In this document: piece by piece, positions 3,846 to 26,525 of the stretch | Layout of the letters: every line of letters starts with the position of its first letter | How positions within the stretch are numbered: position 1 is the first letter of the stretch | DNA from: Candidatus Kerfeldbacteria bacterium | Lineage (GTDB): Bacteria; Patescibacteriota; Patescibacteriia; SBBC01 | Length of the DNA: 64,000 nt | Assembly (NCBI GenBank): GCA_043799405.1 | Contig: JAZDNT010000002.1 | Coordinates: 171,320-235,319, forward strand | Direction of reading: 5' to 3' | Position numbers and translations under genes: made by a program | The notes under the pieces: generated by a model | The model's database searches: none | What the model was told of the DNA's origin: nothing | What the model saw: only the letters and a program-made list of their open reading frames with translations

Positions 3846-5360
3846 ATGGCAAATAGTTCAATGAATCCTCGCATCGATAGCTCCGTAAAGACCGAAAGTA
3901 AAACTGGTACGTTAACCCGCGTCATCACATTTATCGCATTGGGCGTCAGCGCGGTAGCGATCGTCGCTGCGATTTTTGTAGTGAAGGGTCCGTCAGGATC
4001 GAGCGGTAAAACAACATCGCCGTCAGCTGACCCGCTGAAGGTGATGCAGGTATTTTCTTGGCGTTTGGTCTATGAAAATGGAGCTTCGTTCATCCCGCTC
4101 GATTTTTACGGAGGGAACACAAAGCTTGCGTGGCAGTATTTCGATGGAACGAACGTCCAGTGGCAGATGGGAAGCGGAGCTTCACTCCTGCCTACCCCGG
4201 CAGCGCTGAAGATCGTCACCCCATCAGCAACACCCGGTTTCGGTAACCTGCTGCTCCATCTTGAATATTTTGACGTAACCGATCCTACCGTGAACCTCAA
4301 TGCGCCCGGAGTGAACAAGTATCTTACTGTCTGTATCGGCGCTACGAACGCTACGACCGTGTATGTAGGTACTGACGGATCAACGTACCTCACGAAGACG
4401 GGCAACAAGCTCTATGACCGGATAACGACCAAGTCGTGCCCGGACATCATAGCGCAATCGCTCGATATGCTATCGATATCTGAGGTATCGACGACGATCA
4501 TGCAGTTCCCGGATAATGCAGCCGTTAGATTCTCAAACCTTAAAAGTATTCAGGGACTCGTCAGAGCTGTAAACGGCTTTCAACAAGGATGGGGATCGTC
4601 ACCGCAGGATCCTTGGTTTTTCCCGCAACCCTATTCTCCCCATGATCCGCTCATGCTTGAGGCTGCAAATGATTACCGAAAAATCGGGACATTCACGGTA
4701 CCTGCAGCGATGTATGGCATTACGGGTAAGGACATTAACGGCGCCGACCTCACGGTCACCGCGTGCGTTCCAGACCTAAAATTCACCGGAAGCTATAATC
4801 TCGGAACCGGGCCGTTTGCGCCGCGCGTCTTCCTCCGGAATGACGGACAGCCATTCTATGATCCGTTGCTGATAAAACCCGCTATATCGGCGAGCTGCGC
4901 AACAGCAAAAGCGAACAGCCTCAAGTTCTCCTCGATCACATCGATTGATTCGACAGTATTCGCTAGCGGGCAGTTTCCGTCGAATGCGACGATGCGGTTC
5001 GCGAATGCGGGCTTCCTGAACGCTGCGATCATACCTCCGGGCGGATACAGTGCAGGCGTTCCTGCCGTGGTCACGCCGTATGACGATCCTCTTATGGTAT
5101 TTGCGCAGAACGGCATGAGAACGCCAGGACTATTCACAATTCCTGTTGGAACCGTCATCATCGTCGGTAAGGACGCGGCAGGAGCCGCGAAGACCGTAAG
5201 CGCGTGCATACCGGAGCTGAGGTATACGACGAGTGCAACCGCTATGCTGCCGCCGTATCCGCACGTATACATCAGCAAGGACGGAAAACCCTATTCTGAT
5301 GTGTTCCTAACTACGGCGGTACCGTGTAGCGTTAGTGGAAAACAGAAGATTTCAGATTAG
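3846..5360 (+). CDS. Membrane-anchored extracellular protein with internal tandem duplication
   Basis: N-terminal TM anchor (ITFIALGVSAVAIVAAIFVV). Two units of about 145 aa (nt ~4431-4886 and ~4890-5327) align: HDPLMLEAANDYRKIGTFTVPAAMYGITGKDINGADLTVTACVPDLKFT versus DDPLMVFAQNGMRTPGLFTIPVGTVIIVGKDAAGAAKTVSACIPELRYT. The upstream region is AT-rich and lacks an SD. Confidence 0.7.
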   Translation: MANSSMNPRIDSSVKTESKTGTLTRVITFIALGVSAVAIVAAIFVVKGPSGSSGKTTSPSADPLKVMQVFSWRLVYENGASFIPLDFYGGNTKLAWQYFDGTNVQWQMGSGASLLPTPAALKIVTPSATPGFGNLLLHLEYFDVTDPTVNLNAPGVNKYLTVCIGATNATTVYVGTDGSTYLTKTGNKLYDRITTKSCPDIIAQSLDMLSISEVSTTIMQFPDNAAVRFSNLKSIQGLVRAVNGFQQGWGSSPQDPWFFPQPYSPHDPLMLEAANDYRKIGTFTVPAAMYGITGKDINGADLTVTACVPDLKFTGSYNLGTGPFAPRVFLRNDGQPFYDPLLIKPAISASCATAKANSLKFSSITSIDSTVFASGQFPSNATMRFANAGFLNAAIIPPGGYSAGVPAVVTPYDDPLMVFAQNGMRTPGLFTIPVGTVIIVGKDAAGAAKTVSACIPELRYTTSATAMLPPYPHVYISKDGKPYSDVFLTTAVPCSVSGKQKISD

Positions 5361-5378
5361 TGAATTGTATCCAACAAG

Positions 5379-5406
5379 AAAAGACCGGCAACCGCCGGTC
5401 TTTTTT
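5379..5406. terminator. Bidirectional rho-independent terminator
   Basis: AAAA-GACCGGC-aacc-GCCGGTC-TTTTTT between convergent genes. Confidence 0.85.
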
Positions 5407-5501
5407 GTCTCATAGCTTCGGTTATACGGAATGACCTATCGTCATTGGTTATAAAGGCTACTGTGTTGCGTTTTCGTCGTTCTGTTCTGCAAATTGTATA
5501 C

Positions 5502-5921
5502 TCATTTTCCGCCATAGGCGGATCCGCCGAACTTATTGGAAGAAAACAGCTCCTTCACTTTGGATCGGTTGAGAAAAATAACAGCATAAAGACTCAGTAA
5601 TGCTAATGGGGACATGAATACCAATCCAACCATATCTTGTCCTGTTGTATCGCCAGAGAAAGGATATGAAACCAAGGATACGCTAAAGAGTGTGAGGGAT
5701 ATCAGAGAAACAACAATAATGGCTTTACGGAAAATCTTTTTTAGGAAAAACAACCCAATGCTAGAAATAAATGCTAATGCAAAGAAAATAATATAGGTCA
5801 CTACTTCCAGATTTATAATGTTACTAGTTTCAAATAAAAGAAAGTTTCCATATCCAAGGCATAGTAAAACAGCGATAATTCTATTGGTCTTGATTAATCG
5901 ACTTGGATCGTCTTTCTCCAT
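5502..5921 (-). CDS. Integral membrane protein (4 TM), strongly AT-rich gene
   Basis: 139-aa ORF with four hydrophobic segments and a GAGAGG RBS. Its composition is visibly much lower in GC than its neighbours. Confidence 0.6.
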   Translation of the reverse strand: MEKDDPSRLIKTNRIIAVLLCLGYGNFLLFETSNIINLEVVTYIIFFALAFISSIGLFFLKKIFRKAIIVVSLISLTLFSVSLVSYPFSGDTTGQDMVGLVFMSPLALLSLYAVIFLNRSKVKELFSSNKFGGSAYGGK

Positions 5922-6068
5922 CGTGTGCCTCTCAGCTATAGTCCTTATCTCTCTTAATCGACCACGGTAACCACAGCTACATCACATTTCCGCTCGACCA
6001 AATGACTGCAGCGATCATAGTGAGCCCTTCGGGTGTGCGGCAGGTTCGGCCACGTCCTTCGCGGGCCC

Positions 6069-19929: not shown

Positions 19930-20078
19930 GGTGTTGTAGTCGATGTATTCATACGGACAAGGAAAAACACGAGGCGTGAGCATGAACGCTCGCTCCTGCG
20001 ATCAGTAAGCCTCTTATATTTTGGATCCTCTCCCGAGAATCGTTTTTTTTCATGGTTGGTTGTTTATTTGACTTATCT

Positions 20079-20107
20079 ATTATACCACGTATTTCAGGTT
20101 CGGTCAA
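20079..20107 (-). promoter_or_regulatory. Sigma-70 consensus-like promoter for the histidine kinase
   Basis: On the minus strand: TTGACC-17 nt-TATAAT. Confidence 0.55.
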
Positions 20108-20463
20108 TGAAAAATTAATTTTCAATACAGCCAAAATGCAAAGCTACGAACACATTAATACGCGTACAAGTTGGTTTTAAAAATTTTTTATAACTATACA
20201 CCCTGGAGTAGCCATCGACACACGAACAATTTGTTTCATTCGGGCTCGGTGTTTCAGATTCGAACCCTTGAATAATAGATACATCTTGCGCAGAGTGGCG
20301 ACCTTTGGATTTCTTTTAAGAACTTGATTGGAGTCAAACTATGGAAACAGTGAGATCTGCTTTGCACAAATATAATAATAAAAACTACACTTATATGTAA
20401 TGGTAATTATTTCGGCTCGCCCTGCATGCGCAGGGCGAGCCGTCCAACAGAACTTCTGCTTCA

Positions 20464-21757
20464 TCAGGCCCCGGTCTCTGCCTCCGCGGCGACCTTCTGT
20501 GCGACCTTCACGGACGCGAACTTCTTCAGCACGTCGAGCAGGATGCCGGGCACCTTCTCCAACTCCTCGGTCACCACGAACTCCAGGGGGCCATGGAGGT
20601 TGTCGCCACCGTACCCCATGTTCGGCGTGGGGACCTTCGGGTAGGTGTTGTTGAACATGGCACCATCGGTGCCGCCCCTGGCCATGTGATCCGTCGCCGT
20701 CACGCCAGCTGCCTCGTGCGCAGCGTGGAGGATCTCCAGCACCTCGGGGGTCATGGACTGCACGTTGTTGATGCAGGCCAGGCGGTTCTTGGTCACCTCG
20801 AGCGTGCAGCCCCCCCCGCGCCGCCTCCTCCTCGGCGATGCGGAGCAGAGTCGCCGTCATCTCGTCGGACACCTCGGCCTCGAAAGCCCGGGGCGCCAGC
20901 ATCAGGACGGTCTGGCTCGGGTTGCCCTCGATGTTGGTGACGTAGAAGAACGACCTCGTCTTGTCCTTGATCCCATCCCACGGTGACGGGTACATTGCCG
21001 TCATCCGTTGGATGAACCGGAGCGCAGCGTAGTGCGACGCCTTCAGCAGCTTCGGGTACTCGCCGGGGTGCGCGTCCTGGCCCCTGAAGGTCAGCATGAC
21101 CTGGCGGCAGTGGAAGCACCCGACGGAGAGGTTCCCGAGCCGAGTGCCGTCCACGGTCAGGAACATGCCGAACGACTCGGCGAGCTCCTTCGGCAGGTGC
21201 TCGATGCCGAGCTGGCCGATCTCCTCGTCCACGCAGAACCAGATCATGACCGGTCCGTGCGTGTATGCGCCGGTGAGCAGCGCCTCGATCAGGGTGACCA
21301 GTGAGGCAACGCCGGCCTTGTCGTCGCCGCCCAGCAGCGTCGTCCCGTCCGAGGTGATGATGTGTTTCCCTTCGAGGCCCGCGAGGTGGTCCGCCGGAAT
21401 CACCACGTCGTTGAAGGGCAGCTTGATGTCTCCGCCCGCGTAGTCGTGGATCGTCGGCTTCGCATCGCCCGGCATGCCATAGTAGGTGTCGACGTGCCCT
21501 GCGAGGCACATGCGCTTCGCGTCCTCGAAGCCGGGAGTGGCCGGGATGTCGACGAGGATCGAGTGGTCGCCGAGGTGCGTAATGCAGGCATCGGGCACGC
21601 CGATCGTAGTCAGCTCCACCGCCAGCATGCCCATGAAGGTCAGCTGGCCAGGACTGCTGGGCGTCGTGACCTCCTCACCCGGGCCGAAGTTGTGTGAGCG
21701 GGTACCCACACGGACGTACTGCAACAAGCGTTCGAGTACTGGAGACTGTGAACCCAA
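20464..21757 (-). pseudogene. pepT: Peptidase T (M20B tripeptidase)-like gene with a frameshift in a G8/C8 homopolymer; very high GC
   Basis: SPVLERLLQYVRVGT.., GHVDT, GGDDKAGVA, VDEEIG. The C-terminal third (RGGTDGAMF..YGGDNLHGPLE) lies in another frame (track ORF 20464..20796). The frames join if the C8 run at 20810-20817 is 7 nt. Probable TTG start at 21757 after GGAGGTG. Confidence 0.75.
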
Positions 21758-21941
21758 GGGTACACCTCCGTGTTGGGAATGAGCTGCTATGCTAAGCGTT
21801 CGCTTAGCGCGGACACGGCAACATCCTACAGTTACTGAAATATTTGTCAAGAAAGATATTTTCCAACGCCGCTTGCTGGATACAAAAAAACGGACCGTGA
21901 TCGTTTGTCACAGCAACTGATATCTGAGTATTGTTATATAT

Positions 21942-23089: not shown

Positions 23090-23164
23090 TGGGGTGGCTA
23101 ATGGGAATCGAACCCATGCTAAAGGCTCCACAGGCCTCTGTGCTACCGCTACACCATAGCCACC
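23090..23164 (-). tRNA. tRNA-His (anticodon GTG) with encoded G-1 and CCA
   Basis: Manual cloverleaf: G-1, acceptor GTGGCTA/TAGCCAC, D-arm GTGT-AGCGGTA-GCAC, anticodon arm GAGGC-CTGTGGA-GCCTT, T-arm ATGGG-TTCGATT-CCCAT, discriminator C, CCA. Confidence 0.9.
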
Positions 23165-23293: not shown

Positions 23294-23917
23294 ATGCTCG
23301 ATACGATCGTCATTGCAACGCAGAATCCCGCGAAGAAAGCACGATACGGCCGCATCCTGAAGACGCTGGCGAAGAATGTTGTGAATCTCAAGGATCTCGG
23401 CGTCGCTGAAAAACCCACGGAATCTGGGGAAACGGCAGAGCAAAACGCGGAGATCAAGGCGCGGTTCTACGCCGACCGCGTGAAGTTTCCTGTGCTTGCC
23501 GAGGACGAGGCGCTATTTCTGGATTACCTGTCGGTCAACGAGCAGCCCGGCGTCCATGTCCGGCGTGTGAACGGCAGGGAAGAGGTGAACGACGACGAAC
23601 TTCTCGCGCATTGGGAGGGGATCGTGTCGAAACTTCCCGAAGGAAAGAGGACGGGCAAGTGGCATATCGCATACTGCCTCGCAGTTCAGGGAAAACCGGT
23701 CGCGACCGTTGCGCTCGATCATCCAATCCTTTTCTTTTCACCGCCGTCGAAAGTCCGCATCCCCGGCTGGCCCATGAGCAGTTTGGAAGGTCCTGTCCGT
23801 TTTGGAAAGCCACACACCGAACTGACGGAAGAGGAGCATCGGATGAATGATGCGACAGCAGATGAGGCGATTCGGGGGAAGTTGGGGGAGTTGATGCGGT
23901 CTAAGTATAGTAATTGA
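23294..23917 (+). CDS. Ham1/RdgB-like non-canonical NTP pyrophosphatase (divergent)
   Basis: IVIATQNPAKKARYGRIL, ESGETAEQNAEIKA, AEDEALFLD. The C-terminal half diverges from canonical RdgB. Confidence 0.55.
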   Translation: MLDTIVIATQNPAKKARYGRILKTLAKNVVNLKDLGVAEKPTESGETAEQNAEIKARFYADRVKFPVLAEDEALFLDYLSVNEQPGVHVRRVNGREEVNDDELLAHWEGIVSKLPEGKRTGKWHIAYCLAVQGKPVATVALDHPILFFSPPSKVRIPGWPMSSLEGPVRFGKPHTELTEEEHRMNDATADEAIRGKLGELMRSKYSN

Positions 23918-23923
23918 AATACA

Positions 23924-25429
23924 ATGAACAGAAAGGTGTTTCAAAAAAATTTGGAGGCATTACTACCATCGGTGTTGTCATATGCTGTCGATGAGATTCC
24001 AAAATTGAAAAAAGTATTAGAAACACGTCATCAACAAGATTCTACATCGAGTGAATTCAAAACATTTATTAATAAATGTCATGAGGGCTTTAAGAAAGCT
24101 CAAACACAAATCATCCCCATTTTACTTGTACTTGAAGACGAGATAATTATCGTCAAACAACAAATATTCGCCTGCGAGAGGGGCAAGCATAAAAAGGAAT
24201 TAGAAAGAGACGAAATCCATAATCGGCTTTCTGATGAACTATTTGAGCTTGAAATTCAAAGACGTGCAATAAAAAATGTTGCGGATGTAATTGTTTGGAA
24301 TATCTTTCATTTGGAAAAAACGCATATTAAAGCATTCATGACACCCTCTATGCATAGCGGCTATTTGAAGGATAGGGACATAAAATCTGTAAAGAAAATT
24401 GCTGAAGAATATAATCGGGACGAAAATAGTTTTGCGTTGATTACCGATATCACTTCTACGATAGGCATCGGTGATATTTTACTGATTAAAGGGGGCGAAT
24501 TTCATGTAATTGAAGTCGGAGGAGGAGAAAAAAATGACAAGGTTGAAAATACACTGCATGAGGTTTTTGGATCTGGATTAGATAAAGCCGATATCAATAA
24601 ATGGCGGGATCTAATGAGAGATTCAGACTTCCATGAAAAAAAACATCTCTACCGAAAAACAAAACAATTACTAAGATCAATGGCGGCGGTTCATTATCTG
24701 CAATTCGACGAAGGATATGATCCTACACTGAAAGCATACAAAAAAGCGACCACAATTGAAGCTCCTTCACAATCTTTTTCAGAAATTATTAATCTTGCTC
24801 TCGATCAAGAAGACAAGTGGTCAAAATATCCATTTCTATTGCCATTGGATTGTGTCATTGTTGGAATCGTAAAAAGAAATACCCCCGCATCCTATTTAAC
24901 TAGCGAGTGGGAATTCAAACATCATCTATACCATTTTATTTATGAACCTTGGGAGAATTGTGGTTACGGCAAGTTGCAAGAGTCAAATAAAGAATCCGAC
25001 GAAAGTTTTTTTGAATTTCCAAAATACTATAATATTCCAATATTCCGATTGCTCCAAGCGGTTTTTTATCCCGTAGTTTTACCGCTTTACATTACTCTGA
25101 AACCACAACATGCGATTAGTTTATATTGCAGAATAATGTCCATCTTCATGTTCTTTGATGGTGATCGGTTTATAGATATGTGTCATGAAAGAGGCCTTGA
25201 TGCAGAGTGGAACGAGTATCCAAATCAATTGAAAGGAGGAAATACTCGTGATCTCGCAAAATTCGACAAGGGTTATATTCAAATATCTTACGAGGGAACA
25301 ACGATTTTTCTTGGAAACGGTATTTTATTTCGCATGCTTTACGAATTTCAATCGGGCTATAGCACTATTGAACAAATTAAAGAAATGTTAATCACTACCA
25401 CAGAACAACATATGAGAAAAGAAAAATAA
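23924..25429 (+). CDS. AT-rich orphan protein (501 aa) with coiled-coil N-terminus and a possible PD-(D/E)xK/NERD-like core
   Basis: Its composition is far lower in GC than its flanks and it has no SD. The central segment ALITDITSTIGIGDILLIKGGEFHVIEVGGGEKN resembles the D..(hhh)..hhExK strand pattern, but the K is displaced. Confidence 0.6.
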   Translation: MNRKVFQKNLEALLPSVLSYAVDEIPKLKKVLETRHQQDSTSSEFKTFINKCHEGFKKAQTQIIPILLVLEDEIIIVKQQIFACERGKHKKELERDEIHNRLSDELFELEIQRRAIKNVADVIVWNIFHLEKTHIKAFMTPSMHSGYLKDRDIKSVKKIAEEYNRDENSFALITDITSTIGIGDILLIKGGEFHVIEVGGGEKNDKVENTLHEVFGSGLDKADINKWRDLMRDSDFHEKKHLYRKTKQLLRSMAAVHYLQFDEGYDPTLKAYKKATTIEAPSQSFSEIINLALDQEDKWSKYPFLLPLDCVIVGIVKRNTPASYLTSEWEFKHHLYHFIYEPWENCGYGKLQESNKESDESFFEFPKYYNIPIFRLLQAVFYPVVLPLYITLKPQHAISLYCRIMSIFMFFDGDRFIDMCHERGLDAEWNEYPNQLKGGNTRDLAKFDKGYIQISYEGTTIFLGNGILFRMLYEFQSGYSTIEQIKEMLITTTEQHMRKEK

Positions 25430-25523
25430 GTAAAGCCCTTCCTCTCTTGAAAGTCTATTCTTTCCCTACACTCTCATCATCCCGTTTGCCATTGCCGGCC
25501 GCATCGGTTTCGGCGGGGTAAAT

Positions 25524-25549
25524 ACAGCGCGGCATTAATGCCGCGCTGT
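25524..25549. repeat. REP-like perfect palindrome, left copy
   Basis: ACAGCGCGGCATTAATGCCGCGCTGT, identical to 26114..26139. Confidence 0.9.
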
Positions 25550-25594: not shown

Positions 25595-26032
25595 TCAACT
25601 GCCAACCTTTTCGCGCGCCGCCTCATCGATATACACCCACGGCGGCTTTCCGTACCTTTCCGGTAATTCCGTTTTCCTGAAGTTGTAACGAATATATTCG
25701 ACTGTCCGATTGAATCGCAAGTCACTGTCGATAATGCGGAAATTGAATCGTGGCTGCCAAAACCTTCCTTGCCTCAATAGAATCGAATATCTCCCCTTCA
25801 CGATGTTCATCAATTTCGACAATGAATAGCGCCCGTTCCTCCGTACAAGAAGATGGACGTGATTCGGCAAAACGCAGAAACCAAAAAGCGCGAAGTCGTA
25901 CTGGATGCAGGATCGTCGCAGTACCCGACTGAAACGCACGGCGGTTTTAGATGCAGTAAAATGCAACAAACCAAACGCGGTGTTCGTGGTGACGAAGTAG
26001 ATATGCTGCCCGTCGATTGCGCGTTGCGTCAT
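25595..26032 (-). mobile_element. IS200-like Y1 (HUH) transposase / REP-associated tyrosine transposase (RAYT)-like gene
   Basis: HUH motif in VLPNHVHLLV and a C-terminal tyrosine region EYIRYNFRK. About 146 aa from the internal ATG (MTQRAIDGQHIYF). The track ORF start at 26125 lies inside the right palindrome. Confidence 0.75.
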
Positions 26033-26113
26033 GGCAAATGTTCCGTGACGCGCCACCGACGATGTGAGCGTAAATGCAAATATCGTCGTTGTCAACGTTG
26101 CAGCCATTTCATT

Positions 26114-26139
26114 ACAGCGCGGCATTAATGCCGCGCTGT
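26114..26139. repeat. REP-like perfect palindrome, right copy
   Basis: ACAGCGCGGCATTAATGCCGCGCTGT. Together with 25524..25549 it brackets the RAYT-like gene. Confidence 0.9.
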
Positions 26140-26249
26140 AAATTGCTGTTGCGATTGCGTCCTTATATTCTCATCATTCCATTCGCCATTGCTGGCATCG
26201 GTCTCATGGTCGGTTTCGGCGGTTCCTCTGCCATCGGTGCGACGGAGTG

Positions 26250-26450: not shown

Positions 26451-26525
26451 TGGTGCCCTCGAGAGGAATTGAACCTCTATAACCGGCTTAGAAGTCCGGT
26501 GTTCTATCCGTTGAACTACGAGGGC
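26451..26525 (-). tRNA. tRNA-Arg (anticodon TCT) with encoded CCA
   Basis: GCCCTCG acceptor pairs with CGAGGGC, the anticodon loop is CTTCTAA, the T-arm is AGAGG-TTCAATT-CCTCT, and the 3' end is ACCA. Confidence 0.88.

Follow-up and report, generated by a model that had tools for sequence, protein, structure and literature searches.

Introduction

DS-37 is a defence gene of Escherichia coli (WP_000982358.1, working id SC24) that was brought to light by the DefensePredictor study (Science 2026; PMC13092281). Its single coding sequence, cloned in MG1655, was scored as defensive (defensive=TRUE), a result that was replicated (PMC13092281 Tables S6-S8), and the -log10 efficiency of plating (EOP) was 4.3 on Bas69 and 1.9 on SECphi27 (PMC13092281). 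It was labelled a 'Predicted novel defense gene', and HHblits showed no homology to known defence (PMC13092281). The domain table of that study assigns it to PDDEXK through an HHpred match to NERD over residues 154-204 (probability 0.47) and lists D199 and the ExK at 210-212; according to the authors, the PD-(D/E)xK proteins of the study can be superposed on the catalytic region of EcoRI (PMC13092281). DS-37 has been validated in defence only recently. Here we describe an intact open reading frame (ORF) of 501 amino acids at positions 23924-25429 (+ strand, stop included) of a 64,000-nucleotide stretch of contig JAZDNT010000002.1 (the window) from a Candidatus Kerfeldbacteria bacterium, which belongs to the candidate phyla radiation (CPR). 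Its product is a divergent full-length relative of DS-37, and we consider it likely that the ORF is a horizontally acquired, stand-alone defence gene of this nuclease-type family, with an active site that has probably been rewired.

Shedu works along comparable lines: one protein provides the defence by joining a PD-(D/E)xK nuclease, probably autoinhibited until infection, to non-catalytic domains that vary. The domain order and the partner domains are different, however, with a weak SduA_C match in 1 of 50 family members (E 0.027), and the PADLOC SduA model gave 0 matches for the window protein (E<=10) and 0 for a homologue beside a Gabija system (L013; 1e-3). The NERD domain (PF08378) shares the succession of hydrophobic strand, GD, strand, short turn, strand, E-x-K and G, and is the best, though weak, Pfam/HHpred match both here (E 0.08-0.23) and in the DS-37 annotation, but the N-terminal helical hairpin, the helix bearing R244 and Q248 (residue numbers throughout are those of the window protein) and the C-terminal domain are absent from NERD. 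The cores of type II and type IV restriction endonucleases (REases), such as EcoRI and Mrr, have a similar D...(D/E)xK metal-binding hairpin; unlike type II/IV enzymes, the family has no methyltransferase partner, and no sequence or Foldseek similarity to them was detectable here.

Through DS-37, a validated E. coli defence system can be connected to an orphan gene of the CPR and to a family of about 300 'hypothetical protein' clusters, with hosts from the CPR, Omnitrophota, Cloacimonetes, Bacteroidota, Bacillota and Enterobacterales. What is new is a family-wide active-site map, the extension of the family to the CPR and other phyla, and a natural variant, K199G/K245, of the putative active site. 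In other respects the gene would be an ordinary one, one more accessory nuclease-type defence gene gained by horizontal transfer.

Relationship to DS-37

When compared by BLASTP, the window protein and WP_000982358.1 align with an E-value of 5e-16 at 23% identity, colinearly over residues 40-483. A hidden Markov model (HMM) of 130 relatives scored DS-37 at 2e-99, and a model of the 14 closest relatives scored it at 8.9e-27 (both E-values scaled to 1.8e9 sequences). These comparisons make it near certain that the window protein belongs to the DS-37 family by homology. The likeness extends over the full length of both proteins (463 vs 501 amino acids), which have the same three-part architecture and conserve the same D, GD, E, G, N, R and Q positions, with D199 and E210-K212 of DS-37 aligning with D184 and E197-K199 in window numbering. 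Both are single genes with no obligate partner, AT-rich relative to the host and placed on mobile or accessory DNA. The two differ in the putative active site, which reads E-V-K, the canonical form, in DS-37 but E-V-G, together with K245, in the window protein. They also differ in setting: in strain MS6198 the gene for WP_000982358.1 belongs to the accessory part of a lambdoid prophage and has AbiH as its neighbour, whereas the window gene stands by itself after the housekeeping gene Ham1 in the genome of a CPR bacterium. Phage defence has been demonstrated for DS-37 only (PMC13092281).

Searches of Pfam, NCBIfam, PADLOC v2 and PHROGs with the 501-amino-acid protein gave chance-level matches only (malic enzyme 0.04, WD_0964 0.12, one PHROG 0.19). 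PADLOC had been proposed as a check when the gene was first noticed from its sequence, and none of its models recognises the protein. A word-indexed search found 8 relatives, and a profile search returned the same 8 and nothing further. An exhaustive search of 1.84 billion cluster representatives yielded 306 matches at E<=1e-3, of which 124 were at E<=1e-10. Members are mostly of about 450 amino acids, with a few of about 680 that carry an N-terminal extension, and a Pfam scan of 101 full-length members matched no family, giving single spurious matches only. Since none of these four libraries, in the copies searched here, has a model for the family, surveys of the CPR defensome that are built on them would miss it. 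It has been noted in a survey of CPR defence that unknown systems may be overlooked there (PMC12259885).

The conserved core

For the conservation counts, 130 members with a length of 400 amino acids or more were aligned with MAFFT. D175, D184, E197 and R244 are present in 130/130, Q248 in 129/130 and K199 in 128/130, and G55, Q60, W125, G183, G201, N204, D266 and P387 are also nearly invariant. The consensus of the core reads FALITD-ITSxIxIGD-LLxI-(turn)-xxxIIEVKEGxxN ... Q..R...Q, and its D...ExK motif is the most conserved feature of the family of about 300 clusters. The sequence-only reading had pointed to a central segment resembling D...ExK, and the conservation of its three acidic residues in every member goes far beyond chance. 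In the window the codon of D175 (GAT) lies at 24446-24448 and that of D184 (GAT), the acidic residue of the GD motif with which strand beta2 begins and the equivalent of D199 in DS-37, at 24473-24475. E197-V198-G199 (GAA GTC GGA, 24512-24520) occupies the place of the family E-x-K, and R244-K245-T246-K247-Q248 is encoded at 24653-24667 (all on the + strand), where R244 is invariant, Q248 nearly so and K245 a candidate for a relocated lysine. The alignment provides a testable active-site map for DS-37 itself, comprising D175, D184, E197, K199, N204, R244 and Q248.

A full-length AlphaFold2 model was made from an alignment of 8 sequences (predicted template modelling score (pTM) 0.76; predicted local distance difference test (pLDDT) 71-87 at residues 151-200). 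It has three parts. The N-terminal region (residues 1-137; 23924-24334, +) is helical, with predicted helices at 3-22, 25-35, 43-85 and 97-127, bearing out the long helical N-terminus that had been read from the sequence. Helices 43-85 and 97-127 form a long hairpin, and the region carries the motifs CHxGFKxAQ (H53, G55, Q60) and ADxIxW (D121, W125). The putative PD-(D/E)xK-type core (residues 150-262; 24371-24709, +) is delimited by predicted secondary structure and the conserved motif, in the order helix 153-164, strands 169-173, 185-189 and 192-196, helix 202-215 and a long helix 236-261 on which R244 and Q248 are placed. The C-terminal alpha/beta domain (residues 263-501; 24710-25426, +) matches no known family and has conserved positions at D266, C310, G314, P387, D412 and G466. 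It had been described as aromatic-rich and unassigned, and indeed F, W and Y make up 16% of the C-terminal ~240 amino acids, compared with 11.6% of the whole protein; the region is conserved within the family.

The predicted order of secondary structure fits the alpha-beta-beta-beta-alpha-beta core of the PD-(D/E)xK superfamily, and the family consensus has both the acidic residue at the start of beta2 and the (D/E)-x-K on beta3; the window protein keeps D184 and E197 but lacks the Lys. As beta2 starts from D184, the turn has two residues (190-191) and beta3 ends at E197, D184 and E197 would be cross-strand partners on the beta2-beta3 hairpin, in the classical PD-(D/E)xK geometry. When 50 core segments and the family consensus were compared with Pfam at relaxed thresholds, sub-threshold matches recurred on families of the PD-(D/E)xK clan: NERD (0.084-0.23), PDDEXK_9 (0.015), TnsA_N of Tn7 (0.018), SduA_C (0.027), VRR_NUC (0.036-0.18) and MmcB-like (0.095), always covering the beta1-beta3 segment. 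NERD was matched by 2 of the 50 members (best E 0.084) and by the family consensus at 12.4 bits, short of the Pfam gathering threshold for PF08378 (22.1 bits). The concentration of weak matches on one clan is not significant and can be taken as suggestive only.

Loss of the ExK lysine

The nearest relative of the window protein is its sister P0002 (locus L001), to which it is 48% identical. These two are the only ones of the 130 members with Gly at the position of the ExK lysine, and both read E-V-G-G-G. The first reading of the sequence had described this Lys as displaced, and the deviation is both real and nearly unique to the pair. Gly199 is encoded by GGA, of which both the first and the second base would have to change to give a Lys codon (AAA/AAG), so that a single sequencing error does not explain it. 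All other positions of the DS-37 catalytic constellation are present in the window protein. Among positions conserved in at least 80% of the family, both sisters deviate at N152D, K199G and Q241H only, and D175, D184, E197, G201, N204, R244 and Q248 have been retained in both despite 52% divergence.

Both sisters also carry K245, a position at which K or R is found in just 2% of the other members, which have M, V, I or T there. K245 comes right after the invariant R244 and is one helical turn from Q248. Because the other invariant residues have been kept through 52% divergence, relocation of the lysine with rewiring of the active site is most likely what the alignment reflects, and is favoured over inactivation. 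A fuller version of this idea is tentative, and we regard it as possible rather than probable. In it, both sisters would be functionally rewired by a move of the lysine, as general base or charge-stabilising residue, from strand beta3 to the adjacent R244/Q248 helix (K199G -> M/V/I245K); the product would be a PD-(D/E)xK-type defence nuclease without the ExK lysine, encoded in ultra-small CPR episymbionts by a promoter-less single-gene cassette behind a housekeeping gene. The K199G and K245 pair provides a ready-made natural test of the migration of catalytic residues in PD-(D/E)xK enzymes. K203 was considered as the migrated lysine as well, but it is not specific, being present in 33 of the 128 members that contain K199.

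The gene for P0002 is itself of low GC content (0.39, in a genome of 0.60) and is found among housekeeping genes. Both K199G genes lie directly downstream of a nucleotide-metabolism gene of host GC content, a Ham1 ITP/XTP pyrophosphatase in the window (23294-23917) and a GTP cyclohydrolase II at L001 (9107-9871). With n=2, this may be a coincidence.

Distribution and neighbourhoods of relatives

The distribution of the family over genome, metagenome and plasmid loci is patchy and accessory. CPR hosts include Kerfeldbacteria, Magasanikiibacteriota, Pacebacteria and Paceibacterota, and an identical protein is on record from a 302-kb contig of a Candidatus Kerfeldbacteria metagenome-assembled genome. 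Other hosts are Cloacimonetes, Omnitrophota and Bacteroidota (Paraflavisolibacter caeni), and copies are carried on a Bacillus cereus megaplasmid and on plasmids of Enterobacterales. In E. coli the family is present in 67 of 5,426 complete genomes. A scan of viral contigs found no phage copies, and when the window protein served as the tblastn query, phage and plasmid collections likewise gave nothing; with a main-clade member as the query, plasmid copies were found and again no phage copies.

Relatives are often found in the company of defence genes. One homologue adjoins a complete Gabija system (GajA 3e-215, GajB 1.5e-227), and other neighbours include Old/GajA-like, AbiU, PDC-S64 and PD-Lambda-3_B. 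On plasmids and in an E. coli prophage the neighbours are AbiH, Abi family (Abi_2), a reverse transcriptase (RT) with Avs1a, and integrases (tyrosine recombinases). Among a further 87 neighbouring ORFs, housekeeping genes occur side by side with PtuA, methyl-directed REases, conjugative-transposon genes, phage and Tn916 integrases, rve and TraM. An all-vs-all comparison of neighbours over about 40 loci revealed no conserved adjacent gene, which makes the gene a stand-alone module. A conserved partner in a two-gene system was considered and rejected, the upstream genes being heterogeneous (AbiH, Abi_2, AIPR, OLD, RT, unknowns, none). An examination of the distribution and neighbourhoods of homologues, which the sequence-only reading had called for, shows patchy occurrence, defence islands and mobile elements, and no fixed partner. 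Together with the motif and the homology to DS-37, this island context upholds at the level of the family its suggestion of a nuclease-type (PD-(D/E)xK/NERD-like) defence gene.

Some of these neighbourhoods deserve a closer description. In four independent contexts (L045 6790-9140, L046 3481-5947, L048 11003-13392 and L012 7929-11413) the family gene follows a different Abi-type gene that lies 16-90 nt upstream on the same strand, namely AbiH in E. coli and Klebsiella, 'Abi family' in Pantoea and AIPR/AbiU in Omnitrophota. As DS-37 works alone, this adjacency may be island clustering, the alternative being a functional pairing. In a member of the Magasanikiibacteriota (L009 7973-12241) the homologue is the second gene of a three-gene island of low GC content (0.27-0.29 vs 0.43). 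It lies 12 nt downstream of the gene for an OLD-family ATPase/TOPRIM nuclease (PADLOC Old 1.7e-52) and is followed, 6 nt further on, by that for an unassigned protein of 260 amino acids; the island may be a composite system. The subfamily of about 680 amino acids has a conserved N-terminal extension of about 200 residues (ILAFGSLVDEPG...) with no Pfam or PADLOC match. The extension is seen at L013 9254-9900 and L006 1298-1990, and also in P0044, P0088, P0101 and P0129; the homologue at L013 follows a 1351-amino-acid protein of unknown function and faces the complete Gabija system. Decaying copies are also seen. On the B. cereus megaplasmid (L047 7986-9363) the family gene is annotated as three separate ORFs; it immediately follows a reverse-transcriptase gene, and the island also holds Avs1a. 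In E. coli, IS1 interrupts two of the copies (H15, H16).

Probable horizontal acquisition

The ORF has a GC content of 0.353 (0.31 at third codon positions, GC3), compared with 0.56 (GC3 0.66) in the Ham1-like gene before it and 0.552 in the remainder of the window. The lowest-GC kilobase of the 64 kb is 24001-25000 (0.356), the next lowest being at 0.448, and the low-GC tract corresponds approximately to the ORF alone. Of 28 family loci, 24 have a gene that is poorer in GC than the flanking DNA (mean difference -6 points, Wilcoxon p=1e-4), with the window and L001 as the extremes, each at -20 points. Other dips in the window, where the mean is about 0.55, are at 5001-6000 (0.448) and at 20000-20500 (about 0.40), the latter between a histidine-kinase gene and a PepT gene.

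The ATG follows the TGA of the Ham1-like gene (23915-23917) after a gap of 6 nt. Directly before it, AGTATAGTAATTGAAATACA has no GGAGG-like Shine-Dalgarno sequence (SD) or purine run, and no promoter-like match was found upstream (sequence before the ATG: GTAATTGAAATACA). The position of the ORF right behind the Ham1-like stop, its missing SD and its low GC content relative to both flanks, all of which had been remarked on from the sequence, are therefore as described. Ham1 is a widespread housekeeping gene in the CPR, and its closest orthologues (76% and 63% identity) have no family member downstream. These orthologues and the GC data support a scenario in which a single gene lacking a promoter was inserted right behind Ham1 as a cassette, and are in keeping with the recent acquisition that had been proposed. 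Synteny around the Ham1 orthologues is limited to Ham1 itself. We looked there for a clean 'empty site', but synteny breaks immediately downstream, which shows only that the gene is absent.

Proposed mode of action and alternative explanations

The family architecture, as predicted, would be an N-terminal helical hairpin, a central PD-(D/E)xK-type (NERD-like) core and a family-specific C-terminal alpha/beta domain. Because the ORF starts 6 nt after the Ham1 stop without a promoter or SD of its own, the protein would be made from the Ham1 transcript, with the Ham1 gene probably supplying transcription. It may then be held inactive until infection, as a self-contained sensor and effector. On infection, a Mg2+-dependent centre formed by D184 and E197 across the beta2-beta3 hairpin, with D175 nearby, would cut nucleic acid, and the positive charge of the missing K199 would be provided by K245 on the R244/Q248 helix (or by K203).

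Membership of the DS-37 family by descent stands, but catalytic equivalence does not follow from it automatically, and the chances that the window copy is an active defence nuclease are in our estimation about even or somewhat better. A number of findings weigh against the reading set out above. The lysine is kept in all 128 other members of the alignment and is missing from the window copy, so that activity of this copy does not follow from that of the family. As the two proteins that share K245 are sisters, its covariation with the loss of K199 would represent one evolutionary event. The gene for P0002, the only other one with K199G, has a frameshift near its 3' end (L001 11330-11370). No recognisable defence gene was found near the ORF in a Pfam scan of the window, which contains no defence island; known defence genes within a few genes are a feature of the homologues, not of this locus. 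At 23% identity, the window protein may act on other phages than DS-37 does, or even have another function. The study that described DS-37 and its supplements yielded no catalytic mutant (PMC13092281), which leaves the nuclease mechanism as an inference for the whole family, and the NERD match that was published for DS-37 reached a probability of just 0.47. A Foldseek search of PDB and BFVD with the full-length model brought up no nuclease, its matches being long-helix proteins only (best E 0.3); the core-only model was poor (pLDDT 54) and its matches were noise, again with no nuclease. Three family profiles gave no relevant match among PDB sequences, and there was no significant profile match to any PD-(D/E)xK-clan family in Pfam or PADLOC.

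The alternative that best withstands the evidence is that catalysis was lost with K199G and that the copy is either decaying into a pseudogene or has been kept for a non-catalytic function, for example to bind DNA or to act as a decoy. The Gly in place of a lysine that is otherwise universal, the frameshift in the sister gene, the lack of defence neighbours in the window and the decay of family copies elsewhere (the three ORFs in B. cereus and the two E. coli copies cut by IS1) would all be in line with it. However, the 501 codons are intact and align end to end with the family, and the retention of D175, D184, E197, G201, N204, R244 and Q248 in two lineages that are 48% identical is not expected of drift. 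The frameshift at L001 falls in A6/G7/C6 homopolymer runs, and the downstream frame still encodes the conserved C-terminus at 56% identity to the window protein; for these reasons it is probably recent or an assembly error, a slippery tract being a further explanation that has been considered. Loss of catalysis also leaves aside the specific, potentially compensating Lys245 that is common to both proteins. On balance we regard inactivation as unlikely, although it is the most serious competitor of a rewired defence nuclease.

It is considerably less probable that the D...D...E-x-K...R...Q constellation belongs to another enzyme chemistry and that defence is achieved by a non-nuclease mechanism. 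The absence of any significant structural or profile match to a nuclease, the low published HHpred probability for NERD (PMC13092281) and the two thirds of the protein that have no assignable fold would allow for it. Against this, the order and spacing of the motif and its placement in a predicted alpha-beta-beta-beta-alpha arrangement fit the PD-(D/E)xK superfamily, the weak Pfam matches fall on six families of that clan, all over beta1-beta3, and DS-37 (SC24) is listed as PDDEXK in a study whose PD-(D/E)xK proteins superpose on the EcoRI region (PMC13092281). That the gene is not immune here but selfish or mobile-element cargo, for example a nuclease for mobility or addiction tied to the neighbouring Y1 transposase, is very improbable: a Y1_Tnp/IS200-like gene with flanking palindromes does adjoin the ORF, the base composition of the ORF is foreign and homologues are frequent on plasmids, prophages and conjugative elements, but neither a Y1 transposase nor any other gene is conserved as a neighbour over the ~40 loci, the low-GC segment is approximately the ORF alone while the Y1 gene is convergent and close to the host in GC content (~0.50), and the E. 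coli homologue cloned alone protects against phage (PMC13092281).

Genomic surroundings in the window

The gene directly upstream of the ORF (23294-23917, +) has host GC content and encodes a Ham1-like non-canonical NTP pyrophosphatase (Pfam Ham1p_like 5.5e-17). It is preceded by a tRNA-His (23090-23163, -) and a methyltransferase gene. Downstream, and convergent with the ORF, is the Y1_Tnp/IS200-like transposase gene (25595-26125, -; Pfam 1.3e-11), followed by a tRNA-Arg(TCT) (26451-26525, -); a DUF2079 membrane protein and a Xer-type recombinase are also encoded on this side. These are given as context.

A 27-nt palindrome, TACAGCGCGGCATTAATGCCGCGCTGT, flanks the Y1 gene in two identical copies (25523-25549 and 26113-26139). 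Both copies are at this gene and none is found elsewhere in the 64 kb (0 expected by chance). The sequence-only reading had placed the ORF next to a tRNA and a mobile-element gene with repetitive extragenic palindromic (REP) sequences. The tRNA and the Y1 gene are there, but the palindrome occurs just twice, once at either end of the Y1 gene, so that a dispersed REP family can be rejected for the window. The surroundings of the Y1 gene also contain a diverged duplication, in which 37 nt at 25463-25499 correspond to 26160-26196 (81% identity) and 13 nt at 25504-25516 to 26210-26222 (100%).

Further upstream, a Peptidase T (M20) gene is split over two frames (20464-21850, -). PepT residues ~4-314 are encoded by 20797-21850 (PDB 3ife, 9.6e-28) and residues ~330-431 by the ORF at 20464-20796 (1.5e-10). 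The local GC content is 0.65, and the split represents either a frameshift pseudogene or an assembly error.

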